Below are positions 7,006 to 56,607 of a stretch of 58,668 nucleotides of DNA, one piece after another. Numbering within the stretch: position 1 is the first letter of the stretch; the number at the start of each line of letters is the position of its first letter. The position numbers were made by a program, and so were the translations under genes. The DNA comes from an uncultured Candidatus Saccharibacteria bacterium (GTDB taxonomy: Bacteria; Patescibacteriota; Minisyncoccia; Minisyncoccales; JAGGXC01), in assembly GCA_964607015.1 (NCBI GenBank), contig CAZSHN010000001.1, positions 1 through 58,668 of the forward strand. Reading direction: 5' to 3'. Under the pieces are notes generated by a model. It was given only the letters and a program-made list of their open reading frames with translations. It did no database searches and was not told the origin of the DNA.

Positions 7006-7010
7006 AATTA

Positions 7011-8170: not shown

Positions 8171-8182
8171 TTAAATAAATTA

Positions 8183-8458: not shown

Positions 8459-8463
8459 ACTAC

Positions 8464-9168: not shown

Positions 9169-9186
9169 TCCAAATATTTAATTAAT

Positions 9187-41066: not shown

Positions 41067-41121
41067 TCGCTTTTATTGTGCCACGAAAAAAACGATCTTT
41101 CAAGTTTCTAAAAACCAGCTT

Positions 41122-41934
41122 CTAAATATCAAATAACCTTTTTGCGTTCTCTGTAGTAATTTTGGCTATCTCATCAAAGCTTTTCTCTTTAATCTTTGCT
41201 ATTTCACTAATGACGTGCTTAACATACAGAGGATTATTTCTCCCTTTTTCTGTAGGAGGAGTAAGATAGGGACAATCAGTTTCAACCAATATTCTGTCTA
41301 AAGGAGTTTTCTTTATAACTTTTTTCAAATTTAACTTAAAAATTATTCCATTGAATCCAAGATAAAATCCTTTGTCTAGATACTCTTTTGCTTGAGTTAC
41401 ATTTCCAGTAAAACAATGAATCACTCCCCTATTTCCGGAACCAATTAATTCTAAAAGATCTTCATGAGCTAAACGACAATGAACAATCAGTGGTAAATTT
41501 AATTCTTTAGCTAATTTTACTTGATCAAGGAAAGTTTCTTTCTGTCTTTTTTTAAATTCTTCAATCTTTTTATCGGTTTTTGGTTTATGCCAATAATCTA
41601 GACCAACTTCACCAATAGCAACAACTTTATCTGACTTTGCCAGCTCCTTATATTTTTCATAATCAAAGCTCTCCTCTCTTGATTTAAAATTAGCTTCTTC
41701 TTTATCAATCTTTAGTTTTACCAGCCCAGTATCTAAATGAATTGGGTGCAACCCAACAGCTGCAAAAACTCCTTCTTTGTACTTGCCAGCCATTTCAATC
41801 GCTTTTTGTGACGTATTCTGCTGAGTACCAACATTAATCATCCAAATATCATTACTCAAACATTTTCTGATTATTTTATCAGAATCATCGTCAAAAGCGC
41901 TAAAATTTAGATGAGCATGAGTATCAATTATCAT
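41122..41934 (-). CDS. tatD: TatD-family metal-dependent hydrolase/DNase
   Basis: 270 aa. Family blocks seen are IIDTHAHL, AIGEVGLDY, PLIVHCR, GVIHCFTG and LVETDCPYL. Confidence 0.9.
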   Translation of the reverse strand: MIIDTHAHLNFSAFDDDSDKIIRKCLSNDIWMINVGTQQNTSQKAIEMAGKYKEGVFAAVGLHPIHLDTGLVKLKIDKEEANFKSREESFDYEKYKELAKSDKVVAIGEVGLDYWHKPKTDKKIEEFKKRQKETFLDQVKLAKELNLPLIVHCRLAHEDLLELIGSGNRGVIHCFTGNVTQAKEYLDKGFYLGFNGIIFKLNLKKVIKKTPLDRILVETDCPYLTPPTEKGRNNPLYVKHVISEIAKIKEKSFDEIAKITTENAKRLFDI

Positions 41935-41961
41935 ATTTATTTAGTATATAGTTAAAAGAGT

Positions 41962-41985
41962 AGCAGTTCTTTTTTTAGAACTGCT
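41962..41985. terminator. Hairpin between the 42010 orphan gene and tatD
   Basis: AGCAGTTCT-TTTTTT-AGAACTGCT is a 9-bp stem. The T-run is strong on the + side and weaker (CTCTTTT) on the minus side. Confidence 0.45.
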
Positions 41986-42009
41986 TTTTTAAAAAATAGA
42001 GGAGTTTAT

Positions 42010-42492
42010 TTATGCTATTGTCGGCTTTGGTTCTCTGCTGAATATAGGGGGTAGATCTAGAAAAAACTTTTCTCCACTTAAAAGATCTTCTTCTTTGATG
42101 TGATCTACTATCTTTGAGCAAAGCACTTCAGGAACTTTTTCCTTAAGAATTTCGTTCATTCTTTTTTCTATTTTCTTGTTTCGAGCTTCTCCCGGTATTC
42201 TTATTGCTAATCTTATTGTATGAATAGTCTTTCCTCTTAGTTCGATGATCTCTTCTGGATCAAAAATTACTTGATTGCACATCTCTCCAATCGACTTAAG
42301 AATTTTAGAGTCTTCTTCAAACTCTTTTTTCGCCTTTTCATACAACTTAAACCAGTTTTCAAAACTTTCCTCTACTCCCTTACATATTCTTTCGAGTAAC
42401 TCTTCATATCTTGTTTTTATTTCCTCTTTCTTCTCTCCTCTTTTTATTATTTCTTTCTCACCTTTGTCTATATCAATTATTGCGTAACACAT
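42010..42492 (-). CDS. Hypothetical protein, no recognisable family
   Basis: 160 aa with a strong SD (AGGAGGCGGATACACACATG). The product is K/E-rich and looks helical. Confidence 0.5.
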   Translation of the reverse strand: MCYAIIDIDKGEKEIIKRGEKKEEIKTRYEELLERICKGVEESFENWFKLYEKAKKEFEEDSKILKSIGEMCNQVIFDPEEIIELRGKTIHTIRLAIRIPGEARNKKIEKRMNEILKEKVPEVLCSKIVDHIKEEDLLSGEKFFLDLPPIFSREPKPTIA

Positions 42493-42593
42493 GTGTGTAT
42501 CCGCCTCCTATTTTCTTTTCTCCTCTTTATATTATAAAAGGAGCTACTCTTTTTATAACATAATTGAATGTTTTTTTCAATAAAGACAAGAAA

Positions 42594-44117
42594 TTATCTG
42601 CTCTTGAGAAAGAGAATGGATCCTTTATTAATCTTTATCTTCTTCCTTTCAAAAGAACTTTTTTGAAAAACTTTTTTCTTTTCTTCTTCCGGATTAATTC
42701 CAACTTGCTTTAAAATTTCTTCAGAAGATTCAGGCATAAAAGGAGAAATAAGCCAAGATGAAAATCTAATCAATCTTAACCAGCAATAAAATTTATCTTT
42801 AAACTCTGGCCTATCAAAATCTTCTTTTGATTTCTCCCAAGGCTTAAATTGTTCAATATCTTCATCCATTCTTCTGAACAAATCAACAATACAGCGAAGA
42901 GAACGTTCGAAGTGAAGCTCTTCCATGTTTTTATTCCAGCGAGGATAACATTCTCTCCAAAACCAATCTTCTAATTCAAATGATCCTTTACTTCCCGAGA
43001 TTGACCCATCAAAATATTTCTCTACCATTGTTAGAACTCTATTTACAGTGTTCCCTATTCCATTAGCAAGATCAGCATTATATCTCTCTGTTAGTTTATC
43101 CCAAGAAATGTCTCCATCTTTTCCAAATGGTGCGGCAGACATAAGAAGGTAACGAGCAGCATCAGAACCAAGTTTTTCAATTATTTCTTCGGGCCAAATT
43201 ACATTACCAAGAGACTTGCTCATCTTTTGACTATTTATTGTAAAATACCCATGAACAAAAATCTTTTTTGGCAAAGAAATACCTAACGCCAATAATAAAG
43301 AGGGCCAAATTGTAGCATGCACTCTAAGAATATCCTTTGACATTAGTTGCAAGTCAGCTGGCCAAAATTTATTCTTAAATTTTCCTGCTTTCCCTTTCCA
43401 TCCAATCCCAGTTAAATAATTCAAAAAAGCGTCTACCCAAACATAAGCGGTAAATTTCTTATCAAAGGGCAATGGTATCCCCCACTTCACATTCTTCCGG
43501 GAAATAGAAATATCTTGCAGTCCTTGATCAATAAAAGATAAAACTTCGTTCTTTTTTTGTTCTGGTTTTATTATAAGCTCATCTTTTTCAATCTTTTCCC
43601 GAAGCTCGTCTTCGAAACTACTTAATCTAAAAAGATAACTTTCTTCTTCTATAATCTCTGGCTTTGTTTGGTGGTCAGGACATTTCCCATCAACCAAATC
43701 ACTCTCTGTTTTGTATTGTTCGCAACCAGAACAATAAAGCCCTTTATAAGTTCCTTTGTAAATAAAACCCTTGTCATATAAATTTTGCAAAGCTTCTTGA
43801 ATCGCCTCTATATGATCTTTGTCAGTAGTTCTAATAAAACGATCGTAGGAAATATTAAGATCTTCCCATGTTTCTTTAAAAAGACTAGAAACCTCATCGC
43901 ACAATTCTTGAGGTTTTTTCTTTTGCTTCTTTGCTGCCCTTTCTATTTTTATTCCATGCTCGTCTGTTCCAGTCAAAAAAAAGGAATCTCTTCCTTTGAA
44001 TCTATTGTAATAACGAGCTAAAACGTCAGCAGCAACGGTCGTGTAAGCATTACCTATGTGAGGCTGACCATTAGCATAATATATTGGAGTTGTTACGTAA
44101 AAATTATCATTCTTCAT
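42594..44117 (-). CDS. metG: Methionyl-tRNA synthetase (short form, no C-terminal EMAPII/Trbp111 domain)
   Basis: 507 aa. It has YYANGQPHIGNAYT (HIGH-type), KMSKSLGNVI (KMSKS) and a CSGC...CPDH knuckle. Confidence 0.9.
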   Translation of the reverse strand: MKNDNFYVTTPIYYANGQPHIGNAYTTVAADVLARYYNRFKGRDSFFLTGTDEHGIKIERAAKKQKKKPQELCDEVSSLFKETWEDLNISYDRFIRTTDKDHIEAIQEALQNLYDKGFIYKGTYKGLYCSGCEQYKTESDLVDGKCPDHQTKPEIIEEESYLFRLSSFEDELREKIEKDELIIKPEQKKNEVLSFIDQGLQDISISRKNVKWGIPLPFDKKFTAYVWVDAFLNYLTGIGWKGKAGKFKNKFWPADLQLMSKDILRVHATIWPSLLLALGISLPKKIFVHGYFTINSQKMSKSLGNVIWPEEIIEKLGSDAARYLLMSAAPFGKDGDISWDKLTERYNADLANGIGNTVNRVLTMVEKYFDGSISGSKGSFELEDWFWRECYPRWNKNMEELHFERSLRCIVDLFRRMDEDIEQFKPWEKSKEDFDRPEFKDKFYCWLRLIRFSSWLISPFMPESSEEILKQVGINPEEEKKKVFQKSSFERKKIKINKGSILFLKSR

Positions 44118-44126
44118 AATCCATTG

Positions 44127-45200
44127 TTATGAATCCCTTCTGTGCGTCCCAGAAAGAATCTCTTCTTTTCTCTCAGAAAAGAAATCTTTTAAAAATTCAA
44201 ATAAAATAGCAACCAAAGGAACCAAAAGAATAGCACCTAAAATACCCCAAAGCTTTCCTCCGATAAACAAGGCAATTAAAACAACTGCCGGAGAAATCTT
44301 AACAGTCTTGCTAGTTATTATTGGTAAAAAGATATTTTCCTGAAGCACTTGAATTAATCCTAGGGCAATCAAGACAAATCCTGCTTGTAAAAAACTATCC
44401 ATAGAAATAGTAAGGACAATAAAGGCTGATGCTACGATCGGACCAAGAATGGGAACAAAATCAAACATTCCCATTATCATGGCAAAGGAAACAGGATAAT
44501 CTATTCCCAAAATTTTGAAAGCAATATAGGAGCTAACACCAACAAAAACAACACCGATTATTCTAACTAAAAACCAACCAGTTACTTTCTTCTTGGACCT
44601 ATTCCAAAGATCAAGTAAGTAATTCTCATATTTTTTAGGAAAGAAAAGGGCTAAACCTTTTTCCATCAACCCTTTTTCAAAAGATAAAAAGATAGCCAAG
44701 CTAAAAGTAAAGAAAGTAGCTAAAATACCTCCAAAAAGAGCAAGAAGGGTTGAAAGCAGGTTGTCTTCCATCTTGCCAAATAGCTCCTGGAATTCTAATA
44801 AAAACTGACTAAAGCTATCAGGAGTTTCCACCCCTAAACTACTAAAAACAGGGGCTGCTTTTTCTAAATAATCAGGAATCTGCTCAGACAAAGTCACAGT
44901 AAACTTCTGCATTTCCGAAAAAAAGAAAGGTAACAATAAGTAAAGAGAATAACCAATAAGACCAAAAACAAGAAAATAAACAGAAACCACAGCTAAAACC
45001 CTAGGAACTTTCCTTTTAACCAAAAACCTAACAATAGGCTCAAATAGTATAGAAATAATTAAAGCAAAAATGAACCAGATTATAAATTCCCTGATTAAGA
45101 ATATAAAGTAGATGGAGAAAACAGCTACTAAAATTTTAAAGATTGTTCCCCAAGAAATATCTAAGAAATATTTTTGAGGAGAATCTATTTTTTCATCCAT
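44127..45200 (-). CDS. AI-2E / PerM-family membrane transporter
   Basis: 357 aa, about 8 TM. The family-typical C-terminal block is FDFVPILGPIVAS...LWGILGAILLVPLVAIL. Confidence 0.8.
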   Translation of the reverse strand: MDEKIDSPQKYFLDISWGTIFKILVAVFSIYFIFLIREFIIWFIFALIISILFEPIVRFLVKRKVPRVLAVVSVYFLVFGLIGYSLYLLLPFFFSEMQKFTVTLSEQIPDYLEKAAPVFSSLGVETPDSFSQFLLEFQELFGKMEDNLLSTLLALFGGILATFFTFSLAIFLSFEKGLMEKGLALFFPKKYENYLLDLWNRSKKKVTGWFLVRIIGVVFVGVSSYIAFKILGIDYPVSFAMIMGMFDFVPILGPIVASAFIVLTISMDSFLQAGFVLIALGLIQVLQENIFLPIITSKTVKISPAVVLIALFIGGKLWGILGAILLVPLVAILFEFLKDFFSERKEEILSGTHRRDS

Positions 45201-45209
45201 GTTATTAAT

Positions 45210-46475
45210 TTAAATATTTAATATTTTTTCAAAATTTTCTGCTTTTTTAAATGGACCAATTAAAGCAAGATTAAGATTCTCTGGTACAAATATCTCCTCC
45301 GCTACTTTTTTAAGATCTTCGACAGTTATCTCTTCCAATTGCTTAAACTTTTCTTCCGGAGTTAGAATTTTCCCCTTCAATACTTCTTGTGATGCATAGA
45401 AAGAAGCTAGGGTGTCAGAAGATTCAAGAGAAAGAGTTAGCGTTCCTCTAAGATAATCCTTTGCCTTGCGAAGCTCTTCTTCTCCAATCTTCTTATCTCT
45501 TATCTTCCTATACTCTTCAAGAATAACCTTAACAGCTTCTTCTGCTTTTTTATGATCTACCCCTACTCTTGTAACTAAGTAGCCTGTATCAGTGGCGCTA
45601 TCTGAAGCAGATTTAATATAATAGGCTAATCCTCTCTCCTCTCTTACCGACATAAAAAGACGAGAGCTCATAAAACCACCTAATATTGTCGCTAAGACAG
45701 ATTGAGATAATCTCCTTTTGTTAAACAAATCAAACCCTCTTACTCCAAGACAAAGATGCGTTTGATCAGTTTTTTTATGATGCAATAAAAGATTTGGTTT
45801 CTTTTGTTTTTCTTCAACTGGTAATTTAGGCTTAATCTTCTCACTATTTATCTTTGAGAAATAGTCTTTAACTTTTTCAATAGCATCTTTTTCATCTATA
45901 TTCCCTGCTACACAGACAATAGTATTTTTAGAAGAGTAATGATTGTTTACATAGTTTACAAAATTATCTCGCTTGAACTCTAAAATATTTTTCTTAGTCC
46001 CTATCGTTAGCCATCCTGCTGGCTGATCTCCATAAAGTAGTTTTTCCCAGAGATCTAGGATGTAAGACATTGGAGTGTCAAGATACATATTAATTTCCTC
46101 AATAATAACTCCTCTTTCTTTTTCTATCTCCTTGCTAGGAAATTTAGAATTAAGAAAAATATCTGAGACCCAATCTAGGGCTAATTCAAAATGTCTTGAG
46201 TCAGCTTTTGCCCAATAGCCAGTCAGCTCTTTTGAAGTAAAGGCATTAAAAATTCCTCCTACTTTATCAAGAGTTTCAACAACACTTAAAGGAGTAGGTC
46301 TTTTATCTGTTCCTTTAAAGAACATATGCTCTAAGAAATGAGAAATTCCATTCTCTTCTCTTGTCTCGTATTTAGAGCCTGCTCCCACCAACGCTAAAAC
46401 ACTAACTGCTTTAGTGTTCTTTGCTGGAACAGTAATAATCCTCAATCCATTTTCTAAAGTCGTTTTTTTATACAT
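45210..46475 (-). CDS. M16-family (pitrilysin-like) zinc peptidase
   Basis: 421 aa with the inverted zinc motif HFLEHMFFKGT. Confidence 0.9.
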   Translation of the reverse strand: MYKKTTLENGLRIITVPAKNTKAVSVLALVGAGSKYETREENGISHFLEHMFFKGTDKRPTPLSVVETLDKVGGIFNAFTSKELTGYWAKADSRHFELALDWVSDIFLNSKFPSKEIEKERGVIIEEINMYLDTPMSYILDLWEKLLYGDQPAGWLTIGTKKNILEFKRDNFVNYVNNHYSSKNTIVCVAGNIDEKDAIEKVKDYFSKINSEKIKPKLPVEEKQKKPNLLLHHKKTDQTHLCLGVRGFDLFNKRRLSQSVLATILGGFMSSRLFMSVREERGLAYYIKSASDSATDTGYLVTRVGVDHKKAEEAVKVILEEYRKIRDKKIGEEELRKAKDYLRGTLTLSLESSDTLASFYASQEVLKGKILTPEEKFKQLEEITVEDLKKVAEEIFVPENLNLALIGPFKKAENFEKILNI

Positions 46476-46860
46476 CTTTGAAATAATCTTTTAAAACACT
46501 TTTGTGATAAAAAGCAAAGCTAAGATCCTCTATTTGCTCCTTCGAAAACCACCCTACTTCTTTCACTTCTTTATCTTCTTTTTTAATTTCACCTTTTGCC
46601 TCTCCGGTAAAGACTAAAGAAACTGCGTGCAATCCCTTCTCTTTTATAATCTCATCGTAATAATTAAAGAATCTTGGTTCGAAATCTAACCCTGTCTCTT
46701 CTTTAATCTCTCTCTTTACTGCATCTTCTACTCTTTCGTTCTCTTCAATGTGTCCACCAGGAAAACACCAATAATCTTTGAAAGGTTCTATATTTCTTTT
46801 TGTAAGCAGAACCTTGTCTCCTTTTTTAATAATTGCTCCACAAGTTACTTTCGGCTTCAT
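46468..46860 (-). CDS. NUDIX hydrolase
   Basis: 130 aa. The Nudix box is GGHIEENERVEDAVKREIKEETGL. It overlaps the M16 start by 8 nt. Confidence 0.9.
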   Translation of the reverse strand: MKPKVTCGAIIKKGDKVLLTKRNIEPFKDYWCFPGGHIEENERVEDAVKREIKEETGLDFEPRFFNYYDEIIKEKGLHAVSLVFTGEAKGEIKKEDKEVKEVGWFSKEQIEDLSFAFYHKSVLKDYFKDV

Positions 46861-46864
46861 AAAA

Positions 46865-48193
46865 CTATTCTTCTAATATCTTTTCAAAATATTCTACTAA
46901 TTCTTCTATTTTAATTCTCTCCTGCTTCATAGTATCTCTATCTCTTACTGTCACATTGTTTTTCTCAAGAGTTTCAAAATCAACAGTAACTGCAAACAAA
47001 GTACCAATTTCATCTTGCCTTCTATATCTTCTTCCAATAGAACCAACCTCGTCGTAATAGCATTTGAAATGAGGGTTTAATAGGTCAAACACTTCTTTCG
47101 CTTTCTTTGTTAATTCTTCTTTATTTTTAACTAAAGGCAAAACAGCAACTTTGATCGGAGCTAATTCTTTATTAAATTTCAATACTCTTTCAACCTTCTT
47201 GGTAGCCTTAGTTGTTTTTGTTCTACCTCCTTCTATCTCTGTATATCCTTCTACCAAGAAAGCAAGAAGCGATCTCCCTAACCCTCCTGATGTTTCAATT
47301 ATATGTGGGAAGTATTCTTCTTTTGTTTCTTGGTCAAAATATTTCAAATTCTTACCAGAGTGTTTCGCATGGTTAGATAAATCCCAGTCTCCCCTATTAT
47401 GTACTGCTTCTAACTCTCCCCACCCAAAAGGATACTTATACTCAATATCTGCTCCTTGTCTTGCATAATGAGGCAAATCATCTTCAGGAATTTCTTTAAC
47501 TCTAAGATTCTCTTTTTTAAGTCCCATTTTTTGATACCATTCAATCCTTTGATTCTTCCAATATTCAAAATAATTTTCTGCTTCGTCTGGATGACAGAAC
47601 CACTCCATTTCCATCTGTTCAAACTCCCTACTTCTATAAATAAAGTTCTTAGGATTAATTTCATTTCTAAAGGCTTTTCCTGATTGAGCAATACCAAAAG
47701 GAACCTTCATTCTCATAGAATTCAATACATTCTGAAAATTAACATATATTCCTTGAGTGGTTTCTGCTCTTAAATAAGCAGCTGAACTCTCTTCCTCTAA
47801 CGCTCCAACAAAAGTCTTCATCATTAGATTGAATTTACGAGGTTCAGTAATTTCTCCTCCACATTCCGGACATTTATCTTTTGTAATTTCTTCTTTTTTA
47901 AATCTTTTGTGACAATTCTTGCATTCAACTAATAAATCAGCAAAACCTGCACTTAAATGTCCTGATGCTTTCCATATTTTAGGAGACATTAAAATAGCTG
48001 AATCTAATCTAACTATATCTTTATGATTAGTAAGCATCTCTTTCCACCAAGCATTCTCAATATTCTTTTTAAGTTCAGCTCCTAAAGGACCGTAATCATA
48101 ACCTGAACCAAACCCTCCATAAATTTCAGAAGAGGGAAAGATAAACCCTCGATGTTTGCAAAGTGAGATAATTTTTTCCATTACTTCTTCCAT
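46865..48193 (-). CDS. glyQS: Glycyl-tRNA synthetase (homodimeric alpha2 type)
   Basis: 442 aa. Blocks seen are LCKHRGFIFPSSEIYGG, FRNEINPKNFIYRSREFEQMEME, ETSGGLGRSLLAFL and a C-terminal anticodon-binding domain. Confidence 0.9.
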   Translation of the reverse strand: MEEVMEKIISLCKHRGFIFPSSEIYGGFGSGYDYGPLGAELKKNIENAWWKEMLTNHKDIVRLDSAILMSPKIWKASGHLSAGFADLLVECKNCHKRFKKEEITKDKCPECGGEITEPRKFNLMMKTFVGALEEESSAAYLRAETTQGIYVNFQNVLNSMRMKVPFGIAQSGKAFRNEINPKNFIYRSREFEQMEMEWFCHPDEAENYFEYWKNQRIEWYQKMGLKKENLRVKEIPEDDLPHYARQGADIEYKYPFGWGELEAVHNRGDWDLSNHAKHSGKNLKYFDQETKEEYFPHIIETSGGLGRSLLAFLVEGYTEIEGGRTKTTKATKKVERVLKFNKELAPIKVAVLPLVKNKEELTKKAKEVFDLLNPHFKCYYDEVGSIGRRYRRQDEIGTLFAVTVDFETLEKNNVTVRDRDTMKQERIKIEELVEYFEKILEE

Positions 48194-48229
48194 TGTTACT
48201 ATTTTAACTTTTTTTTAGAAATAAAAAAA

Positions 48230-48250
48230 CCTTTGTAATCTATACAAAGG
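48230..48250 (-). terminator. Intrinsic terminator after the 48276..49958 surface-protein gene
   Basis: On the minus strand: CCTTTGTA-TAGAT-TACAAAGG followed by TTTTTTTATTT. Confidence 0.7.
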
Positions 48251-48275
48251 CTTTTGAAAAATAAAGTCAAGTTTA

Positions 48276-49958
48276 TTATTTAACTATTCCCATCTCTTCA
48301 GAAATAGTATCATCGTCAGGCAAAGTAGTGTCAGTAGAAGAAGCAGTATCGCTTAAAATCTGTTCCGTCCATTGATCTTCTCCTGATACTTCGGATTCAT
48401 TAATCAATACAGCTGGCTCCCCTCTTTGAGAGGATGTAGGCAATAATCTTATTTGGAAAGAAATAGTTGGCGCTGAATTAATAACTCCTTCTCCAGGATC
48501 TAAATCACCGACATCCCAGATAATTTCTCTTGAATCGGTATCAAAAACAAAATCTTCTTCCTCTTCTTCTGGATATATCTTTCCTGTTAATTCAACTTCA
48601 TCAGGTAAAATAGTCCTCACCTTAACATCTTCCACTTTATTATAATGATTATTAACCTGCCAAGTAACAGTATAAGTAGTTCTTCTTCCTACTTCTGGAG
48701 GAATTGGTCCTGAATTACCAAAAACCTCATCTTCGTAATAAGCTTTTTGAATAAGCTCTAGCCTTGAATTAACTTTTGTTTCAAATTCTTCTCTTGCTTC
48801 CGAAAGAATAATCTTATCTTTAACTAGCGGGTTCTTGTCTCTGTCGACATTGGATATCTCCCAATCATCTTTCAGCTCTATCCAGAAATCAATCTCCCCT
48901 TCTTCCTGACTGTCCAAGAAAGCAAGCTGAGGATTATCTCTCCAATCAAAAATAATGGAATTATCTCCAAGCTTAAAGTCTCCTCCTGGAGCTTTTATGC
49001 TTTCTAAATCAATAATCGACCCTTCTAGTTGAACTACCATAAACAAATTGCTCAAGGGTTCTTCTCCTAGATTTTTAAATATTACATCATAATGAAGCAA
49101 GTCTCCTGGATCAGCAGTATATTCAGGACTACCATTAATTTGCTGAGTGATATAAATGTCTGGCTTTACAATTTCTATTCCTTTGTTAATTTCTTTCAAT
49201 GAAACAAATTCTCCGTCTTTCCAACTTCCTAGCTCAGCCTTAAAAATCTTCTCTTCTCCTAGTGAGCCCTGAAGACTTCCCGTTACTTCAATTCTTCCCC
49301 CTTCTGCTCTGTTTAAAAGACCGATTTCCCACTCTTTCTCTCCTAAAGGATTGGGGTCTGATTTTTCAAAATCAAAACCAGAAGGATAATCCATTTTTAC
49401 TCTTAAACTAGAAAGAGGAAAATCTACATTAGAAAAATAATTCAATCTAACCTTTAGATTCTCTCCTGGTTCCACTTTTGAAGGCAAGTCAAACTGAAAA
49501 CTAATAGGAACTTTTTTAATTATTGTAGTAAAAGTAGTCTTAGAATCATACCAGGCATTCAGATTCTTAGGCTGGTAATTCATAGTAGCTTTCGCTATTC
49601 GAGGCTCTTCTTCTTTTCCCAACAACCTACATTTAAAAGAAATGGTTTTTTCTTCTCCAGGATAGATTGCTTCTCCTAGCTCTTCTTTTCCTATTTCTTG
49701 CCTAATCGATTCTCCTGATTCAAGAATTGAGTAATCAGGATACTCAAAAATTAACTTCGGGTTTTCCAATCGAACATCGCCATTGTTTTTATACTTAACA
49801 ATATACTCTACTTCTTCTCCTAAGCTAGCTTCTGTCGGACCCAATATCTCTAACTTTAGAACTTCCTTAGAATAAGTATTGTTCTGATAATACCAAAGCC
49901 CTGCTAACCCAAGGGTAACAGTTAAAAACGTTAAAAGAATGATAAATTTTTTCTTCAT
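48276..49958 (-). CDS. Membrane-anchored surface protein with about four DUF11/CARDB-like beta-sandwich repeats
   Basis: 560 aa with an N-terminal TM. A recurring motif G(E/D)x3-Yx-V-x3-N-x-G appears as LGEEVEYIVKYKNNGDVRLENP, PGENLKVRLNYFSNVDFPL, PGDLLHYDVIFKNLGEEPLSN and VGRRTTYTVTWQVNNHYNKVEDV. Confidence 0.5.
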   Translation of the reverse strand: MKKKFIILLTFLTVTLGLAGLWYYQNNTYSKEVLKLEILGPTEASLGEEVEYIVKYKNNGDVRLENPKLIFEYPDYSILESGESIRQEIGKEELGEAIYPGEEKTISFKCRLLGKEEEPRIAKATMNYQPKNLNAWYDSKTTFTTIIKKVPISFQFDLPSKVEPGENLKVRLNYFSNVDFPLSSLRVKMDYPSGFDFEKSDPNPLGEKEWEIGLLNRAEGGRIEVTGSLQGSLGEEKIFKAELGSWKDGEFVSLKEINKGIEIVKPDIYITQQINGSPEYTADPGDLLHYDVIFKNLGEEPLSNLFMVVQLEGSIIDLESIKAPGGDFKLGDNSIIFDWRDNPQLAFLDSQEEGEIDFWIELKDDWEISNVDRDKNPLVKDKIILSEAREEFETKVNSRLELIQKAYYEDEVFGNSGPIPPEVGRRTTYTVTWQVNNHYNKVEDVKVRTILPDEVELTGKIYPEEEEEDFVFDTDSREIIWDVGDLDPGEGVINSAPTISFQIRLLPTSSQRGEPAVLINESEVSGEDQWTEQILSDTASSTDTTLPDDDTISEEMGIVK

Positions 49959-49979
49959 AATATACTTATTGTATCAAAT

Positions 49980-50705
49980 TTATGAGGGATTTAAAATATC
50001 TTTGAAATAAGAAAGATAAACATTAGAAATATCTTCTAGTTTTCTTTCGTAACTTTGGTCAATGTTTATTTTTTTTAAACCTTCCCAATCCTCTCTAATT
50101 AAAAACCTTAACAACTTTATTGTTTCAGGGTCAATCTTTCTCCCAGATTTCAATTCTCTAAAACAATTGTTGCAAATTACTCCACCCTGATCTGGATTGA
50201 AGTAAAGGTTTTCTGGAACTAATTTTCTTTGACAAAAAGAACAATTATTTAATTCTGGTTGATACCCTAAAATAGTTATAAGGTTCCAAAAGAAATAATA
50301 ATAAACAAGAGAATCAGAAACAAAAGAATTATTAAGTTTTTCAAATACTCCTAAAACTAGATCCCATATTTCTTCTTCTTTTTCTTCTCCTCTCACTAAA
50401 GAATCGACATCTTCTCCAATCTCTGTCGCTATCCTTAATTTTTCTAAACTATCATTGATATTACTAAACTTATTTTTTGAAACAGCATCAGTCAGAATCT
50501 TATATCTCTTTCCTTGAATAAAGCCAATTTCTGACAAAGAAAAAAGAGAAACTCCTGATTTAAGCTTAGATTTTATTTTCCTGATAGATTTTGCTAATAC
50601 TTTTATCTTCCCAAAATCCTTGGTAAGGATAGTAAGAAATTGATCAGCTTCTCCTCTATCTTCTTTTTTAAGCACAATTCCAGGAGTCCGGTAATGAACA
50701 AACAT
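49980..50705 (-). CDS. recO: DNA repair protein RecO
   Basis: 241 aa. The OB-fold N-terminus is GIVLKKEDRGEADQFLTILTKDFGKIKVLAKSIRK. The Zn motif is CSFCQRK...VICNNC. Confidence 0.9.
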   Translation of the reverse strand: MFVHYRTPGIVLKKEDRGEADQFLTILTKDFGKIKVLAKSIRKIKSKLKSGVSLFSLSEIGFIQGKRYKILTDAVSKNKFSNINDSLEKLRIATEIGEDVDSLVRGEEKEEEIWDLVLGVFEKLNNSFVSDSLVYYYFFWNLITILGYQPELNNCSFCQRKLVPENLYFNPDQGGVICNNCFRELKSGRKIDPETIKLLRFLIREDWEGLKKINIDQSYERKLEDISNVYLSYFKDILNPS

Positions 50706-50707
50706 AA

Positions 50708-53700
50708 TTATATCTTCTTAATTGCGAGCCACAAATCTTTTTGTTCAAATTTTGTTTCTCTTTCAGCTCCAAATGCTAATTTTTCCTTCTTTCCAAATTC
50801 TATTTTTTCTGCCTTGGCTTCTTTTAATATAACTTCTTCGTTTCTTGTCAAAACATCATTAAGTTCTTTATCTCCGGAAAAATAAATAACAATCTTGTGT
50901 CTTGGTTTGTACCCTGCTTTCTTTCTCATTGATTTTATATAACGAAGGACTTCTCTTACCGTCCCCTCTTCTCTTAACTTTGGAGTAATAACAAGATCTA
51001 ATTCTATTTCTTCTTTAATATTCTCAAAAGAGACTTCTTTAACATTCACTTCTTCTTTAATTAAATCAATCAATTCTTTTTCTTTTAAATCTAATTTCTT
51101 TTTATTGATCTTCAAGGAAGCAAGAGGTTGTCTTACTTTAATCCCGGCATCTGCTCTTTTGTTTAAAGTCAGAGCAACTATTTTTCTAATATCACTCATC
51201 TTTCCTTCCAATTCTTTATCTATTAACTCTTTAACAGGACCGGGATAATCACACAAATGAACTGACTCTTCCTTTCCTTTATAAGAAGGAAGTTCTCTGT
51301 AAATACTTTCGGCAAAGAAAGGAGTAAAAGGAGCTATTAGCTTAGTTAATTCTATTAAAGTATAATTTAAAATCTTCGTAGCCTCTTCTTTTTCTTTCTC
51401 GCTTTCTGGTTTTTGAAATCTTGTTCTTGATCTCCTGATATACCAATTAGATAAATCATCAACAAAACCTTCAAAAAGTCTGGCAGCATCTACTATTTGA
51501 TATTCTTCCATTTTTTTATCTATCTCCCCTTTCAGACTTTCTAATTTAGAAATAATCCATTTATCTAACAAATTATTAGGATTAATATCTAGATCAATTT
51601 CTTCTTTATCAGAATACATAGATAAAAACCTAAAACTATTCCATAAAGTACCAAAGAACTTTCTAGAAAGATCTTTAAGTTCTTTAAAGTCAAATCTTTT
51701 AGGCTCTCCCGCAGAATTAATAGTATAGAAATAGAATCTTGCACAATCAACTCCAAAATCTCTTGCTACTTCTTGAGGGTCAACAATAATTCCTCTTGAC
51801 TTAGACATCTTTCTCCCTTTTGCATCTAAAACTATTCCAAGAGAAATCACATTCTTGTAAGAGATTCCGAGTCCAAGCAAAGTAGAGATAGCAAGCAATG
51901 TGTAGAACCACCCCCTGGTCTGATCCACTCCTTCGCAAATAAAGTCAGCTGGGAAAAATTTATTGTCATCAATCATTTCTTTATTCTCAAAAGGATAATG
52001 AAGCTGACCATAAGGAACAGATCCAGAATCAAACCAGCAATCTATCACTTCAGAAACCCTCTTCATAGAAGATCCGCATTTAGGACAATTAAATTCAACT
52101 TCATCCACGTATGGTCTGTGAAAATTAAGATTTCCTTTTTTGTCATAAGGGAATTTTTTAAACTTGATTTTCCTTATCTCATTATTGCTAGGAACAAGTT
52201 CAGAAAACTGTTCCATTGTTTCTTTGTTATTCAAACCTTTAATAGCGGCCTGTAAAAGCCAAAGGGGACCTCCATGACTAACTATTAAAATATTCTTTCC
52301 TTTATATTTCTTTTCTAGCTCTTTTATAAAATCAAGGGTTCTTAACTTAATCTCATTAAAACTCTCTCCCCCTTCAGGAGGATTGTTAAATCCTTTTTCT
52401 GTTCCTAAGAATTCTTTTTTCCAATTCTTAACAGGCTTCCCATCAAATTCACCAAAATCCATTTCTCTTAATCTCTCGTCAAAATTTATCTTCACTCCTA
52501 TCTCTTTAGAAGCCATTTCTGCTGTTTCTTTTGTTCTTAATAAATCAGAGGAGAAAATTAAATCTATCTTTTCTTCTTTTAAATTTTTAACCAATTCAGA
52601 TACTTCCCTTCTCCCTTTAGCAGTAAGAGGACAATGTCTTTTTTCTGGCCACGAACAAAGCCTTTCTTCTTCCTGAGTACAAGAGTGGCCATGCCTCATT
52701 AAATAATAATTATTACTGCTAAATTCTTGTGAAGATAAATCTTCTCTAGATCCAATTACTTCAAGATGGTCACAATCAGAACATTTCCATACAGGCAGTG
52801 GAGTTCCCCAATACCTTTCTCTGGTTAAATTCCAATCTTTAATTCCCCTTAACCACTCACCAAATCTTCCCTCTTTTAAATGTCCCGGAATCCAATTAAT
52901 CTTCTCGTTATTAGCCAGTAAATCATCTTTTACTTTTTGCATATTAACGAACCAGCTTTTTTTAGCATAGTAAAGAAGAGGCGTATCGCATCTCCAGCAA
53001 AAAGGATAATCATGAACACATTCTTCTTCCTTTAGAATTAAATCATTCTTTTTCAACTCTTCAATAATTAAGGAATCAGCACTTTTTACAAATTTGCCTG
53101 CCCACTTTTTTACTTCTTTTTTAAATTTCCCTTCGTCATCTATTGTAACTAAAACAGGTAAATCATTTTCTTTTCCAATATTCATATCATCTTCACCAAA
53201 AGCAGGTGCTACATGAACTAATCCTGTTCCTTCTTCTAAGGAGACGAAGTCTGCTCCAATTACTTTATAAATATTCTTTTCTCCTTTCGCTGATTTAATA
53301 TTAAATAATGGCTCATACTCTACTCCAATCAAATCCTTTCCTTTTATTCTATCTACTATTTCTCCCTCAATTCCTGAATTTTCCAATCTTCCCTTAGCTA
53401 CAACTAAATTCTCTCCATTTACTTTAACTTTGTAATAAATAAATTCAGGATTAACAGCAATAGCTACGTTAGCAGGTAAAGTCCAAGGAGTAGTAGTCCA
53501 AGCAACCAAATAAGAATTTTTAAGATTAGACTTTCCTTTAACTTTAAATTTAACGTAAATAGCTGGATCTTTTGTTTCCTTATATCCTTGAGCTACTTCA
53601 TGAGAAGAAAGAGACGTTCCACATCTCGGACAATAAGGAATAACTTTATAATCTTCATAAAGAAATCCTTTCTCCCAGATTCTTTTCAATGCCCACCAAA

Positions 53701-54151
53701 CAGATTCCATGTAATCAGGCTCACAAGTAATATAAGGATTATCCAAATCCAACCAGAACCCTATTCTTTTGGTGAACTCTTCCCACTCACTTTTATAATT
53801 AAAGATATTTTTCTCACACTCTTGAGCAAACCTCTCAATACCAATCGCTTCAATTTCTTTTTTACTCTTTACCTTAAGCTGTTTTTCTGTTTCCATTTCA
53901 GTAGGTAAACCATGCGTATCCCATCCTGCCTTTCTTTCAACGTAAAACCCCTTCATTGTTCTGTGACGCAAAATAGCATCTTTAAAAGAGCGCGCTAAAA
54001 GATGATGGATTCCAGGTTTTCCATTAGCAAAAGGAGGCCCTTCGTAAAAAACAAAACGAGGATTGTCTTTACTCTTCTCTAAAGTTTTTTGAAAAATATT
54101 GTTATCTTCCCAAAATCTGAGAATTTCTTGTTCTTTTTTAGGTAAATCCAT
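50708..54151 (-). CDS. ileS: Isoleucyl-tRNA synthetase carrying an internal histidine-phosphatase (PGAM-like) domain insertion
   Basis: 1147 aa. It has PPFANGKPGIHHLL (HIGH), KMSKSRG (KMSKS), CP1 editing blocks (TTTPWTLPAN, GTGLVHVAPAFGEDD) and Zn knuckles. An RHG...SHGG phosphatase domain lies in frame at aa ~473-675, between WKCSDCDHLEVIGSREDL and NFHRPYVDEVEFNCPKCGS. Confidence 0.95.
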   Translation of the reverse strand: MDLPKKEQEILRFWEDNNIFQKTLEKSKDNPRFVFYEGPPFANGKPGIHHLLARSFKDAILRHRTMKGFYVERKAGWDTHGLPTEMETEKQLKVKSKKEIEAIGIERFAQECEKNIFNYKSEWEEFTKRIGFWLDLDNPYITCEPDYMESVWWALKRIWEKGFLYEDYKVIPYCPRCGTSLSSHEVAQGYKETKDPAIYVKFKVKGKSNLKNSYLVAWTTTPWTLPANVAIAVNPEFIYYKVKVNGENLVVAKGRLENSGIEGEIVDRIKGKDLIGVEYEPLFNIKSAKGEKNIYKVIGADFVSLEEGTGLVHVAPAFGEDDMNIGKENDLPVLVTIDDEGKFKKEVKKWAGKFVKSADSLIIEELKKNDLILKEEECVHDYPFCWRCDTPLLYYAKKSWFVNMQKVKDDLLANNEKINWIPGHLKEGRFGEWLRGIKDWNLTRERYWGTPLPVWKCSDCDHLEVIGSREDLSSQEFSSNNYYLMRHGHSCTQEEERLCSWPEKRHCPLTAKGRREVSELVKNLKEEKIDLIFSSDLLRTKETAEMASKEIGVKINFDERLREMDFGEFDGKPVKNWKKEFLGTEKGFNNPPEGGESFNEIKLRTLDFIKELEKKYKGKNILIVSHGGPLWLLQAAIKGLNNKETMEQFSELVPSNNEIRKIKFKKFPYDKKGNLNFHRPYVDEVEFNCPKCGSSMKRVSEVIDCWFDSGSVPYGQLHYPFENKEMIDDNKFFPADFICEGVDQTRGWFYTLLAISTLLGLGISYKNVISLGIVLDAKGRKMSKSRGIIVDPQEVARDFGVDCARFYFYTINSAGEPKRFDFKELKDLSRKFFGTLWNSFRFLSMYSDKEEIDLDINPNNLLDKWIISKLESLKGEIDKKMEEYQIVDAARLFEGFVDDLSNWYIRRSRTRFQKPESEKEKEEATKILNYTLIELTKLIAPFTPFFAESIYRELPSYKGKEESVHLCDYPGPVKELIDKELEGKMSDIRKIVALTLNKRADAGIKVRQPLASLKINKKKLDLKEKELIDLIKEEVNVKEVSFENIKEEIELDLVITPKLREEGTVREVLRYIKSMRKKAGYKPRHKIVIYFSGDKELNDVLTRNEEVILKEAKAEKIEFGKKEKLAFGAERETKFEQKDLWLAIKKI

Positions 54152-54155
54152 AATT

Positions 54156-55727
54156 TTACATTTTTTCAGGAGCAGAAACTCCCATTAAATCTAAAACTTC
54201 TTTTAATATTATTTTGGTTGCTAGAGCTAAAGACATTCTTGCTTCTTTCATTTTTTTATCATCACAAAGAATCTTACAATCTCTATAAAATTTATGAAAA
54301 TCTTCCGCTACCTTAATGCCGTATTGAGGTAAACGCTGAAGCTGAAAATCATTCGCTGTTTCTTCAACTATTTCCGGTAGTTTAATCAATTCTTTAATCA
54401 AGCTAATTTCTGAAGGATGTTTTAATAATTCAAAGTTTCCATTTAAAGATTTCTTTTCTTGCTCTAAAACACTACAAATTCTAGCATGAGCATACTGAAC
54501 ATAGTAAACAGGATTTTTCTTGGACTGTTCTTTGGCCAAGGAAAGATCAAACTTTAAATGAGTACCAGCTGATCTCTGCAAGAAAAAAAATCTTACCACG
54601 TCAGAACTTACTTCTTCAAGTAATTCATCCATTGTTACATACACCCCCTTTCTTTTAGACATTTTTAACTCCTTTCCTTTGTCTAAAAGAGTAACGAATT
54701 GAAGAAGAACAAATTCTAACTGGTCTTTATACCCTAAAGCTTCTACTCCAGCTTTTAAACCAGGAATATCACCATAATGATCAGCCCCCCAAATATTTAT
54801 TACTTTGTCAAAACCTTTATCTTTAAATTTGTAACTATGATAAGCTATGTCCCCTGCTAAGTAAGTAGGTGTTCCGTCTTTTCTAATCAAAACTCTATCT
54901 CTCTCGTCTCCAAAATCTTTGGACTTAAACCACAAAGCTCCTTCTTTTTTATAGACTAGTCCTTTTTTATCTAAAGAATTAATGACTTTTTCTATTGCTT
55001 TTGATTCATGTAATTCTTTTTCAAAAAACCATTCATTATAATCAATGCCAAGCTTATCAGTAGTTTTTTTGATCATTTCTTCTAATATTATCTTTGCTGC
55101 TTTTTCTCCTGCTTTATAAGGATCTTTCTCTTTTATTCTTTTATTTAACTGATCTATATATTCTCCTTTGTATTGAGCTTGATTGTCTTTTAAAACTGAA
55201 TGACCAAGAGCAAGTATTTGATTACCGTAATTATTAACATAATAAGCTTTTTCAACTTCAAAGCCAGCTTTCTCAAGAACATTCCCTAAAACGTCTCCAA
55301 AAGGACCTCCTCTGGCGTTTCCTATCGTTAAGGGACCAGTAGGATTGGCGGAAATAAACTCTACTTGAACTTTTTTCCCTTTTCCATTATTAAGCTTGCT
55401 AAATTTTTCTTTTTTGTCTAGAATCTTCTTTAACTGTTCTTCAAGATAATTATCAGAGAGAAAAAAATTAAAAAACGGTCCTTTCTGTTCAACTCTTTTA
55501 AAATACTTTTTAAAACCCTTGTCTTTCCTGGTCTCCTCTAAAACCTCGGAAAGTTCACTCGGGCCACAATAGTCTTTTCTCTTTTTTTTACAACAATTAT
55601 AAGGGATGGCTGCATAATCCCCATATTTTTCTTGAGAAGGCCTTTCAATTTTAATCTCTTTGCATGTTATTCCCTTCTTTTTGCAGGCTTTCTCTACAAC
55701 TTCTTTTATCTTTTCTTTTGCTTCCAT
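54156..55727 (-). CDS. argS: Arginyl-tRNA synthetase
   Basis: 523 aa. It has SANPTGPLTIGNARG (HIGH-equivalent), the MSKRKG region, and a DALR anticodon-binding C-terminus ending ..LDLMGVSAPEKM. Confidence 0.93.
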   Translation of the reverse strand: MEAKEKIKEVVEKACKKKGITCKEIKIERPSQEKYGDYAAIPYNCCKKKRKDYCGPSELSEVLEETRKDKGFKKYFKRVEQKGPFFNFFLSDNYLEEQLKKILDKKEKFSKLNNGKGKKVQVEFISANPTGPLTIGNARGGPFGDVLGNVLEKAGFEVEKAYYVNNYGNQILALGHSVLKDNQAQYKGEYIDQLNKRIKEKDPYKAGEKAAKIILEEMIKKTTDKLGIDYNEWFFEKELHESKAIEKVINSLDKKGLVYKKEGALWFKSKDFGDERDRVLIRKDGTPTYLAGDIAYHSYKFKDKGFDKVINIWGADHYGDIPGLKAGVEALGYKDQLEFVLLQFVTLLDKGKELKMSKRKGVYVTMDELLEEVSSDVVRFFFLQRSAGTHLKFDLSLAKEQSKKNPVYYVQYAHARICSVLEQEKKSLNGNFELLKHPSEISLIKELIKLPEIVEETANDFQLQRLPQYGIKVAEDFHKFYRDCKILCDDKKMKEARMSLALATKIILKEVLDLMGVSAPEKM

Positions 55728-55789: not shown

Positions 55790-56251
55790 ATGAAGATTAT
55801 TACTAAAAACAAGAAGGCTTATTTTGATTATGAAATCCTGGAAACATTCGAGGCAGGGATAAAATTGACTGGACAAGAAGTAAAATCTATAAAGAACGGA
55901 AAGATAAGCATCAAAGGATCTTACGTAGTTTTGAAAAAACAAGACAAGAAAGAAATTCCAGAAGTTTTTATGATTGGATGTACAATCCCGCCTTATCAGC
56001 CAAACAATACTCCTTCTGATTATAATCCTGAAAGATCTAGAAAATTACTTTTAAAGAAACAAGAAATAAAACATTTAATAGGAAAATCAAAAGAAAAAGG
56101 GTTGACAGTTATCCCCTTAAAGGTTTATACTAGGAAAGGTAAAATCAAGCTAGAAATAGCTACAGTTAAAGGAAAGAAGAAAGTTGACAAAAGAGAGAAA
56201 ATAAAAAAGAGAGACGTAGATAGACAGATTAGAAATGCACTTAAAAGATAA
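55790..56251 (+). CDS. smpB: SsrA-binding protein SmpB
   Basis: 153 aa. KKAYFDYEILETFEAGIKLTGQEVKSI..GK is the canonical SmpB N-terminus, and the C-terminal tail is basic. Confidence 0.95.
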   Translation: MKIITKNKKAYFDYEILETFEAGIKLTGQEVKSIKNGKISIKGSYVVLKKQDKKEIPEVFMIGCTIPPYQPNNTPSDYNPERSRKLLLKKQEIKHLIGKSKEKGLTVIPLKVYTRKGKIKLEIATVKGKKKVDKREKIKKRDVDRQIRNALKR

Positions 56252-56253
56252 AT

Positions 56254-56607
56254 GGGGATGTTTGAGATTCGACAGAAATCAAACTTCCTGAATAACCAAG
56301 CTGAGCATCCTGAAACCTCATAAAACTTTCAGGAAAACAATAAGTGAAAACTTATCAGAACAACCAGCTTTAGCATTTGCCTAAAGCCATCGATTTTAGT
56401 GATGCTCGATAGCTAAAATAGGTGTCATATATCGAGATACAGACAACTGTTCTTGCCTCAGAGCAATTGTCTAAATCAATGAGGCTAGGAATTCTATAAT
56501 TTTTGCTTGTTTTCCTAATAGATTTCCGAAACTTAAAACAAGTTAAGCTTGTAGAGTTATTCAAGAATAAATTTCTGGACGAGGGTTCAATTCCCTCCAT
56601 CTCCACA
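56254..56607 (+). ncRNA. ssrA: tmRNA (SsrA), one-piece
   Basis: The 5' end GGGGATGTTTGAGATTCGACAG and the 3' end GGACGAGGGTTCAATTCCCTCCATCTCCAC form the tRNA-like domain. An internal tag frame reads ..AGT GAA AAC TTA TCA GAA CAA CCA GCT TTA GCA TTT GCC TAA (..SENLSEQPALAFA*, stop at 56382..56384). It starts 2 nt after the smpB stop. Confidence 0.9.

Follow-up and report, generated by a model that had tools for sequence, protein, structure and literature searches.

A histidine phosphatase domain nested in the CP3 loop of type-2 isoleucyl-tRNA synthetase of Paceibacteria-type CPR bacteria

The stretch of DNA analysed here (the window, 58,668 nt) carries on its minus strand, on which all features described below are located, an open reading frame (ORF) of 1147 aa at 50708..54151 that profile and AF2 matches identify as ileS, encoding a type-2 isoleucyl-tRNA synthetase (IleRS) with a nested phosphatase. 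Only 4 bp upstream it is abutted by argS (54156..55727), an ORF for an ArgRS of 523 aa, and directly downstream it is followed by the ORF of recO (49980..50705), and ileS is positioned inside a conserved housekeeping block with the order argS-(HP)-ileS-recO-DUF7619-class II aaRS-M16-AI-2E. No second ileS was found within the 58.7-kb window. The NCBIfam profile TIGR00392 (ileS), whose cut-off is 621.4 bits, scores the protein at 927.6, the match being divided into two stretches by an insert, and a Pfam search of the ORF likewise returns tRNA-synt_1 in two stretches (E 1.4e-116), along with Anticodon_1 and DUF5915. Its type 2 status is based on the DUF5915 match and on the best PDB relatives, the IleRS2 structures 8C8W and 1ILE, with which the AF2 model of the ORF agrees at TMt 0.79 and 0.87, respectively; the full-chain model has a confident fold, with an interdomain geometry of pTM 0.80. 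At the sequence level, matches to the IleRS2 of P. megaterium (8C8U-8C9D) and of T. thermophilus (1ILE) reach E ~1e-250, and the type-2 C-terminal domains (DUF5915) are common to these enzymes and the window IleRS. NCBIfam models for exceptional forms of the enzyme were not reached, with scores of 333 vs 1999 for NF040702, 811 vs 1900 for MupA and 802 vs 1900 for MupB (NF000257/8). The window ileS is probably the housekeeping type-2 IleRS gene of a Paceibacteria-type CPR bacterium.

Profiles, alignments and translation divide the synthetase into an N-terminal part (aa 1-472; 52736..54151), comprising the first Rossmann half, the CP core, the CP1 editing domain, CP2 and the first half of CP3, and a C-terminal part (aa 676-1147; 50708..52126), comprising the rest of CP3, the second Rossmann half (WFDSG), the anticodon-binding domain and the DUF5915 C-terminal domains. 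An earlier note on this DNA had described the flanking synthetase as intact, which holds for KMSKS (aa 781-785; 51797-51811), found in the translation and conserved in the family alignment, and for the CP1 editing blocks and the zinc knuckle. The motif that it called HIGH is in fact GIHH (G47-I48-H49-H50, aa 47-50; 54002..54013), which on its sequence is a non-canonical, swapped G/AXHH variant of the class I signature, with H49 invariant and G47 and H50 conserved at 90% or more in the family alignment. The G/AXHH signature is found in many IleRS2 and is functional in them (PMC10485003). In CP1, the Thr-rich peptide W218-TTTPWTLP (TTTPWTLP at 53474-53497 by translation) and the G308/G310/H313/D322 block are invariant in the family alignment, and editing activity is predicted. 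The CP3 zinc knuckle, assigned as in TtIleRS (PMC7191050), consists of a first half at C457-S-D-C460 (52772..52783) and a second half at C689-P-K-C692 (52076..52087), and all four cysteines are invariant in the family alignment.

It is at the tip of this knuckle, between C457xxC460 and C689xxC692, that the phosphatase is inserted. The insert as delimited in the earlier note (aa 473-675; 52127..52735), and borne out by profiles, alignments and translation, contains the histidine phosphatase and both linkers. As that note had recognised, it stands in frame between two IleRS blocks that are normally close together: in the alignment to P. megaterium IleRS2, query aa 440-469 correspond to 8C8W 442-471 and query aa 673-787 to 484-596, and ~203 aa stand where that enzyme has a loop of ~12 aa (14 aa in the closest insert-free relatives). 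Compared with other type-2 IleRS, the window protein thus carries ~190 extra residues, an independent enzyme domain, in a CP3 loop that measures 12-14 aa in insert-free IleRS2. The translation contains all of the motifs that had been quoted for it, namely LMRHGHS, PLTAKGRREV, IFSSDLLRTKETAE, LREMDFGEFDGK, PEGGESF and ILIVSHGGPLW. Its His_Phos_1 core (Pfam envelope aa 483-644; 52220..52705), located by profile and by AF2/Foldseek, scores 131.2 bits on PF00300 against a cut-off of 21.7 (E 4.9e-38) over profile positions 2-165 of 194, and the profile search supports the nested arrangement of His_Phos_1 within tRNA-synt_1. An intein-like element was considered for the insert and rejected.

The proposal that the insert is a branch-1 histidine phosphatase is also upheld by structure prediction, as the AF2 model of the domain by itself (pLDDT 95.6) adopts the alpha/beta/alpha fold of the superfamily, and its best Foldseek matches are PhoE (1H2E), PspA (4IJ6), a riboflavin-pathway HFP (9MMH) and CobC, at TMq 0.78-0.86 and rmsd 2.2-2.8 Å. 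By profile, motifs and fold, the domain belongs to branch 1 of the histidine phosphatase superfamily, with a predicted phosphatase activity. Among solved structures its best sequence match is PhoE/YhfR of Geobacillus stearothermophilus (1EBB, 1H2E; E 5e-17), and it has the length class (~190-210 aa) and the RHG, R, E, H catalytic set of PhoE/YhfR, PspA (4IJ5/4IJ6), CobC (6NRU/6E4B) and HFP (9MMH). These proteins are free-standing small-molecule enzymes, whereas the window domain is nested in a synthetase or, in relatives, coded between argS and ileS. No equivalog phosphatase model of NCBIfam was reached: the best match of the insert alone, CobC TIGR03162, gave 104.8 bits, below the cut-off of 162.9, and PspA gave 69 vs 350. 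The modelled fold is of the short PhoE/PspA/CobC type and not that of dPGM, whose structures fit the domain worse than the short phosphatases do (rmsd 4.5-7 Å, TMt 0.56-0.62) and whose architecture is longer (~230-250 aa vs ~186 aa). Membership in dPGM was also rejected on its NCBIfam profiles (TIGR01258, 38.7 vs 81.7; NF010713, 28 vs 305; archaeal NF038349, 79 vs 225). Short archaeal dPGMs exist, and a mutase activity of the domain may thus still be envisaged.

Residue invariance was compared over 191 domains, of which 171 are nested and 20 are free or fused copies. R486 and the nucleophile H487 of the RHG motif (52688..52696), R539 as the second phosphate-binding Arg in the SDLLRT motif (52535..52537), equivalent to PhoE Arg59 by alignment, and H626 as the second catalytic His in VSHG (52274..52276) are identical in 191/191. 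E563 in the LRE motif (52463..52465), the predicted proton donor and counterpart of PhoE Glu83 and dPGM Glu89, matches the Glu of 'LRE' in PhoE by alignment, and the position is always acidic (E in 137, D in 54); the same alignment rules out E596 of the GES motif as the catalytic acid. Position 493 is N or Q in ~93% of the homologous domains, and the phosphatase domain as a whole diverges ~1.8x faster than the IleRS body. All residues for its own chemistry are retained in each of the two parts, synthetase and phosphatase, and the phosphatase is apparently catalytically active, so far as conservation allows it to be judged, in agreement with the competence previously suggested for it. A decayed domain was rejected, since orthologous inserts retain the catalytic Arg and His residues.

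This nested arrangement is shared by 115 of the 120 best protein clusters and is present at 64 of 80 GTDB species loci of Paceibacteria-type CPR bacteria; the genome scan was seeded with an alignment of six phosphatase sequences. More than 170 independently assembled sequences (NCBI, JGI, ENA, Logan) carry the nested domain with the same junctions and linkers, a recurrence that excludes chance and chimeric assembly. GC content is 0.32-0.36 and uniform across both junctions, and the reading frame is continuous. Many of the nested proteins are named 'class I tRNA ligase family protein' at NCBI, and not IleRS. The earlier note knew of no description of this architecture, and our literature searches found none of an IleRS-nested phosphatase either; the words 'phosphatase' and 'Patescibacteria' are both absent from a 2026 survey covering 96,219 IleRS architectures. 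An IleRS with an additional catalytic-type domain has a curated precedent in NF040702 (ileS_w_GNAT), where the domain is a GNAT instead of a histidine phosphatase. Branch-1 phosphatases are also joined to nucleic-acid or nucleotide enzymes in the mycobacterial RNase H/acid phosphatase (NF005567, Rv2228c type) and in a MutT1 Nudix plus histidine phosphatase protein (NF052459), but these are end-to-end fusions with non-synthetase partners, in contrast to the nested insertion of the window; the phosphatase half of NF005567 matches the insert with 88 bits, and the scores are far below the cut-offs of both models (326 and 475).

At the remaining 16 of the 80 GTDB loci, ileS lacks the insert and the phosphatase is a separate gene of ~190 aa placed between it and argS, with all three genes on one strand in 16/16. 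The nearest insert-free sister clade of the query (bootstrap 100; L081/L082) also has argS-HP(191 aa)-ileS, with junctions formed by a gap of 1 nt and an overlap of 11 nt, and is otherwise identical in synteny. The nested domain is the same protein as this free-standing argS-ileS gene of sister genomes, and secondary loss of the domain in five insert-free relatives was rejected because the phosphatase is present there as a separate upstream gene. Further forms are rare: C-terminal fusions to ArgRS by stop-codon read-through occur in only three clusters, the phosphatase has been inserted at no fewer than two further sites of IleRS, and some proteins carry 2-4 phosphatase copies, with RHG kept in all of them; the other-site and multi-copy variants include one genome with a different GC content and without an argS neighbour. 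At the loci whose gene calls were examined, no recO-ileS fusion was found despite the adjacency of these genes. In L077 ORF2 (P0191), a paralog resembling IleRS, the nested domain persists although its nucleophile His is lost (RPG/RAG), and the synthetase motifs are lost too. In the bootstrapped NJ trees that address the number and direction of nesting events, the backbone support is ~0-10% and the phosphatase tree is without resolution. Sliding-window identity places the query clade nearer to its insert-free sister everywhere except in the segment spanning the insertion point (0.67 vs 0.70), and this dip is weakly suggestive of recombination or of shared constraint.

More distant relatives of the phosphatase are fused to TsaC, in 4-5 clusters only. 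TsaC is another enzyme that converts amino acid and ATP to acyl-AMP and PPi. TsaC of the same phylum is fused to many unrelated domains, including 2H/CPDase-type cyclic phosphodiesterases and NUDIX, and the phosphatase-TsaC fusion is therefore not very specific and was down-weighted.

Taken on its sequence features, the domain may well be an autonomous phosphohydrolase that is derived from the neighbouring gene and tethered 1:1 to the type-2 IleRS, a reading for and against which we find the balance about even. Beside the architecture, the invariant catalytic set, the short-phosphatase fold and the origin between argS and ileS, the repeated tethering to synthetases, as ArgRS fusions, at other IleRS sites and in multiple copies, was counted in its favour, together with the more distant TsaC fusions at reduced weight. 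H487 would accept the phosphoryl group, which R486, R539, H626 and Q493 would hold, and E563 would protonate the leaving group; the phosphatase would be held permanently on the synthetase, one to one, and would leave isoleucine activation, editing and transfer unchanged. As the likeliest role, to which we would assign somewhat under half of the total weight, the domain would dispose of PPi, AMP or a related nucleotide, small phosphorylated compounds that adenylate chemistry on the enzyme yields as products or by-products, and their removal would draw charging forward or keep it clear in a cell of minimal metabolism. Against this it must be said that PPi and AMP are made by all synthetases and diffuse freely, so that a tether specific to IleRS is not obviously needed. 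The literature searched gave no report of a short branch-1 histidine phosphatase that acts as a PPase, with phosphoanhydride cleavage documented for PPIP5K-type members only, and nothing on the PPase content of Paceibacteria. Genes of unrelated function (recO, peptidase M16, a transporter) are also part of the synteny block, which makes adjacency alone weak evidence.

That the phosphatase is mechanistically coupled to charging, such that the IleRS of a large bacterial clade would be a bifunctional enzyme conditioning its own reaction, is a tentative proposal that we regard as rather doubtful. With such coupling, PPi or nucleotide by-products would be hydrolysed on leaving the KMSKS side, or a blocking phosphate would be stripped from the tRNA 3′ end, and selection would repeatedly have moved the protein out of the adjacent gene and into one internal synthetase loop or another.

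The tethered phosphohydrolase has to be weighed first against a housekeeping metabolic phosphatase unrelated to charging, or the phosphoglycerate mutase 'missing' from some Parcubacteria, that became fused through genome compaction with no mechanistic link to the synthetase. We judge this unlikely, although several observations speak for it: the closest matches by structure (PhoE, PspA, CobC, GpgP, the riboflavin HFP) are without exception phosphatases of small-molecule pathways, the synteny block is conserved as a whole together with its functionally unrelated genes, the ArgRS fusion takes no more than read-through of a stop codon, and a passage of Jaffe et al. was also counted for it. Of the speculative roles that the earlier note put forward (tRNA-end repair, hydrolysis of an inhibitor, moonlighting after fusion), the last would be in keeping with an origin from the argS-ileS gene. 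On the other hand, in-frame insertions at three or more IleRS positions, along with multi-copy variants, would be difficult to account for if tethering were not selected, and for the mutase the dPGM models stay far below their cut-offs and the longer dPGM architecture is missing.

Alternatively, the substrate could be a macromolecule, the domain clearing a blocking 2′/3′-phosphate (or pyrophosphate) from tRNA 3′ ends, or reversing an inhibitory phosphorylation of the synthetase, in a repair or anti-toxin function. Members of the histidine phosphatase superfamily that act on proteins are familiar from SixA, PGAM5 and Sts-1, and the enzymes to which the domain is tethered (IleRS, ArgRS, TsaC) all bind tRNA; the fusions of TsaC to 2H/CPDase-type phosphodiesterases and NUDIX would add an RNA-end-processing theme in the same phylum. 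To our knowledge, no histidine phosphatase acts on RNA ends, the closest relatives are small-molecule enzymes, and nesting in IleRS would limit any repair to tRNA-Ile. With a net charge of +7.5 per 100 aa across the family, the domain exceeds the IleRS body (+4.1) in basicity, but the net charge of the query's own domain is only +2 and the signal is confounded by the Lys-rich proteome. Taken together, a macromolecular phosphatase appears distinctly improbable to us.

There is very little to recommend a catalytically irrelevant structural insertion, such as a tRNA- or partner-binding module built on the phosphatase fold. The paralog L077 ORF2 (P0191) illustrates that the fold can persist without catalysis, and the interdomain geometry is confidently predicted; yet the synthetase motifs of this dead paralog are also lost, as in a general pseudoenzyme, the free-standing form is a complete enzyme by itself, and in a fast-diverging domain the four core catalytic residues are kept in 191/191 with an acid that is always E or D. 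An artefact of assembly or gene calling, in which a chimeric contig joined ileS fragments to a phosphatase gene, is a general possibility in metagenome assemblies that has nothing else in its favour and next to no probability here, given that junctions and linkers agree in more than 170 sequences from separate assemblies and sources, that the frame is continuous and the composition uniform, and that AF2 folds the complete chain with confidence.

Few enzymes are as conserved as the aminoacyl-tRNA synthetases, and additional domains at their termini are familiar, above all in eukaryotes. An intact second catalytic domain inside the core of a bacterial class I synthetase, maintained in hundreds of species, is unusual. 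Close relatives with identical synteny present four states of the phosphatase, as a separate and tightly packed gene, as a fusion at the end of ArgRS, as a domain nested in IleRS, and in variants with other IleRS insertion points or 2-4 copies, and this series is rare natural material on the origin of domain insertion. For genome interpretation, automated annotation demotes many nested IleRS to 'class I tRNA ligase family protein', and pipelines may register a 'phosphoglycerate mutase' where the nested domain is present, which could distort metabolic reconstructions of Parcubacteria. If the tethered phosphatase acts on a product or substrate of the synthetase, it would represent a requirement of translation that is specific to ultra-small CPR bacteria.

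The ileS ORF of the window (50708..54151, minus strand) encodes a protein of 1147 aa, and its residues 473-675, the translation of 52127-52735, contain all of the phosphatase motifs quoted in the earlier note. Pfam finds in this protein tRNA-synt_1 in two pieces, His_Phos_1 at aa 483-644 (E 4.9e-38), Anticodon_1 and DUF5915, and the NCBIfam ileS model TIGR00392 scores 927.6 bits against a cut-off of 621.4. The nearest solved structures to the synthetase body are P. megaterium IleRS2 (8C8W) and T. thermophilus IleRS (1ILE). Alignment places aa 440-469 on 8C8W 442-471 and aa 673-787 on 8C8W 484-596, and therefore a loop of about 12 residues has been replaced by about 203 residues. This loop is flanked by C457xxC460 and C689xxC692, with all four cysteines invariant in the family alignment; they make up the zinc motif that, in T. 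thermophilus IleRS, has been assigned to the CP3 subdomain (PMC7191050). The insertion point is fixed, lying in a peripheral zinc knuckle that naturally brings the ends of the insert together. Translation and family alignment bear out the earlier claim of an intact KMSKS motif (aa 781-785) and an intact CP1 editing peptide (TTTPWTLP), whereas the motif taken for HIGH is actually GIHH (aa 47-50; 54002-54013, minus strand), the swapped G/AXHH variant, whose G47, H49 and H50 the family alignment of 120 sequences shows to be conserved. G/AXHH is functional in IleRS2 and gives mupirocin hyper-resistance (Brkic et al., PMC10485003). The AF2 full-chain model from a 120-sequence alignment has a pLDDT of 89.8 (insert at 90-96) and a pTM of 0.80, matching IleRS2 structures with a TMt of 0.79-0.88. 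Judged from the translated protein, one chain evidently holds two complete predicted active sites.

Among solved proteins, the insert is nearest in sequence to PhoE, a phosphatase of broad specificity (1EBB/1H2E, E 5e-17), with CobC and PspA next. The domain-only model (pLDDT 95.6) superimposes on PhoE, PspA, the riboflavin-pathway HFP, mycobacterial GpgP and CobC with a TMq of 0.75-0.86, dPGM being a poorer structural fit than these short phosphatases. The CobC-, PhoE-, PspA- and GpmB-like NCBIfam matches all fall under their cut-offs, those of the dPGM family models far under. From these sequence and model matches, the insert is therefore assigned to branch 1 as a short phosphatase-type member, predicted as unlikely to possess mutase activity. 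Alignment to PhoE predicts E563 of the "LRE" motif as the proton donor and rules out E596 of "GES". Over 171 nested and 20 free or fused domains, R486, H487, R539 and H626 are kept in 191/191, G567 is invariant, R604 is near-invariant (189/191), position 563 is E (137) or D (54), and position 493 is N or Q in about 93%. The phosphatase domain diverges about 1.8 times faster than the IleRS body; since the catalytic residues are kept while the rest of the domain diverges, sequence conservation indicates that catalysis is under purifying selection.

GC content is even over both insert junctions, and an artefact was rejected because the architecture is widespread among relatives. Of the 120 protein clusters that match best (52-85% identity; from NCBI, JGI, ENA and Logan), 115 combine PF00133 and PF00300 in the same way, with inserts of 200-227 aa and source names of Patescibacteria, Parcubacteria, Paceibacterota, Pacebacteria and Nealsonbacteria. 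When one genome for each GTDB species was scanned with a pattern, 399 loci proved to encode a relative, and among the best 80 of them, 64 have the domain nested in IleRS at the identical site. In the hit table, the NCBI label of many nested IleRS is "class I tRNA ligase family protein" instead of isoleucine--tRNA ligase, presumably because the insert upsets the naming model, and metabolic pipelines might also mistake the phosphatase domain for a phosphoglycerate mutase. Since precomputed Pfam annotations already display it, the architecture is unseen rather than hidden. The two domain families are familiar ones, and so is the presence of extra domains in synthetases; NCBIfam even has a curated family for an IleRS with a GNAT domain. 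No paper reporting a histidine phosphatase inside or beside IleRS turned up in literature searches, and the words "phosphatase" and "Patescibacteria" are both absent from a 2026 survey covering 96,219 IleRS architectures.

The nested domain derives from a tightly packed neighbouring gene, and this origin as a separate gene between argS and ileS is new here. In all 16 free GTDB loci, a phosphatase gene of 190-210 aa immediately precedes, in the same orientation, an ileS that lacks the insert, and argS can be seen upstream in 15. Five insert-free IleRS clusters form the sister group to the subclade of the window's protein (bootstrap 100), and their locus runs argS, His_Phos (191 aa), ileS (954 aa), recO, DUF7619, class II aaRS, M16 and AI-2E, with the His_Phos gene packed between a 1-nt gap and an 11-nt overlap. 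The window has the identical order except that the separate phosphatase gene is missing: argS (54156-55727, minus strand; ileS starts 4 bp later), ileS, recO, DUF7619/DUF11, class II aaRS (46865-48193, minus strand), NUDIX, M16 and AI-2E. The protein after recO (48276-49958, minus strand; 560 aa), whose N-terminal segment is hydrophobic and which matches DUF11/DUF7619 weakly, keeps this place in every related locus examined (L081-L083). MetRS (42594-44117) and LeuRS (38661-41066), both on the minus strand, bring to five the synthetase genes on one strand within 17 kb (38661-55727), and among ArgRS, IleRS, the class II enzyme, MetRS and LeuRS the phosphatase is present in IleRS alone. On the plus strand, smpB (55790-56251) and, after a 3-bp spacing, the tmRNA gene (56254-56606; tag peptide ENLSEQPALAFA) diverge from the argS-ileS block; the smpB/argS junction is also kept in loci L083 and L084.

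In distance-based NJ trees of the IleRS body, nested and free lineages pair three times (support 100, 100 and 74) and the backbone is without support. A C-terminal linker, (F/L)x(K/N)x(L/F)PY(N/D)....(L/I)(D/N)(F/L)H(R/K)P, is common to all nested forms and confined to them, the phosphatase of the window's clade is nearer to other nested domains than to the sister's free domain, and the clade is nearest to its sister in all alignment windows but the one that covers the insertion point. These observations would fit either repeated nesting events or one event after which the CP3 and phosphatase segment spread by recombination.

The phosphatase has been tethered covalently to IleRS repeatedly, and rarely to ArgRS. 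Read-through fusions at the ArgRS C-terminus are limited to three clusters, including P0130 (L083 6001-8070), in an otherwise identical synteny block with no ileS between the fusion and recO, and P0273 (L084 7001-9163), followed by ileS. In the IleRS protein P0165 (L086 503-4156) the phosphatase lies about 50 residues downstream of the canonical site, matching the lowest-confidence loop of the window's protein (aa 710-740; pLDDT block means 58 and 68). Proteins P0132 (L087 1932-6191; a 48% GC contig, argS not nearby) and P0235 have a second copy ahead of the anticodon-binding domain, P0152 has two tandem copies and P0125 four. P0187 is also among these other-site or multi-copy variants, all of which keep RHG. 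At locus L077, an ordinary nested ileS (5100-8645) is directly followed by a 1015-aa IleRS-like paralog (8649-11693), 36% identical to its neighbour and nested likewise; this paralog and P0191 have jointly lost CP1, HIGH, KMSKS and the phosphatase nucleophile (RPG/RAG for RHG), and by sequence they look like double pseudoenzymes. Fusions of TsaC with a histidine phosphatase (4-5 clusters) are real, but TsaC fuses promiscuously in this phylum. TsaC/YrdC (threonylcarbamoyl-AMP synthase) acts as a hub for fusions in Patescibacteria (proteins P0391-P0506; L085 977-2140), most copies having an MGMT-like PF01035 domain, and other partners being TruB, a 2H/CPDase cyclic phosphodiesterase, NUDIX, GNAT and a DNA glycosylase domain.

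As to function, we tentatively favour, at somewhat less than an even chance, that the domain clears away a small phosphorylated compound, a product or by-product such as PPi, AMP or a nucleotide; this is the sole chemistry common to IleRS, ArgRS and TsaC. An unrelated housekeeping phosphatase, or a missing PGM, fused through genome compaction is a lesser possibility, in keeping with close relatives that are all metabolic, a synteny block of mixed content and the reported patchy distribution of PGM in Parcubacteria (PMC7304191). A macromolecular substrate, either a tRNA-end phosphate or a phospho-synthetase, is unlikely, and a purely structural role of the insert is very improbable. The domain probably acts as an autonomous phospho-histidine hydrolase carried 1:1 on the synthetase, and we lean slightly towards the phosphatase being functionally coupled to the synthetase.
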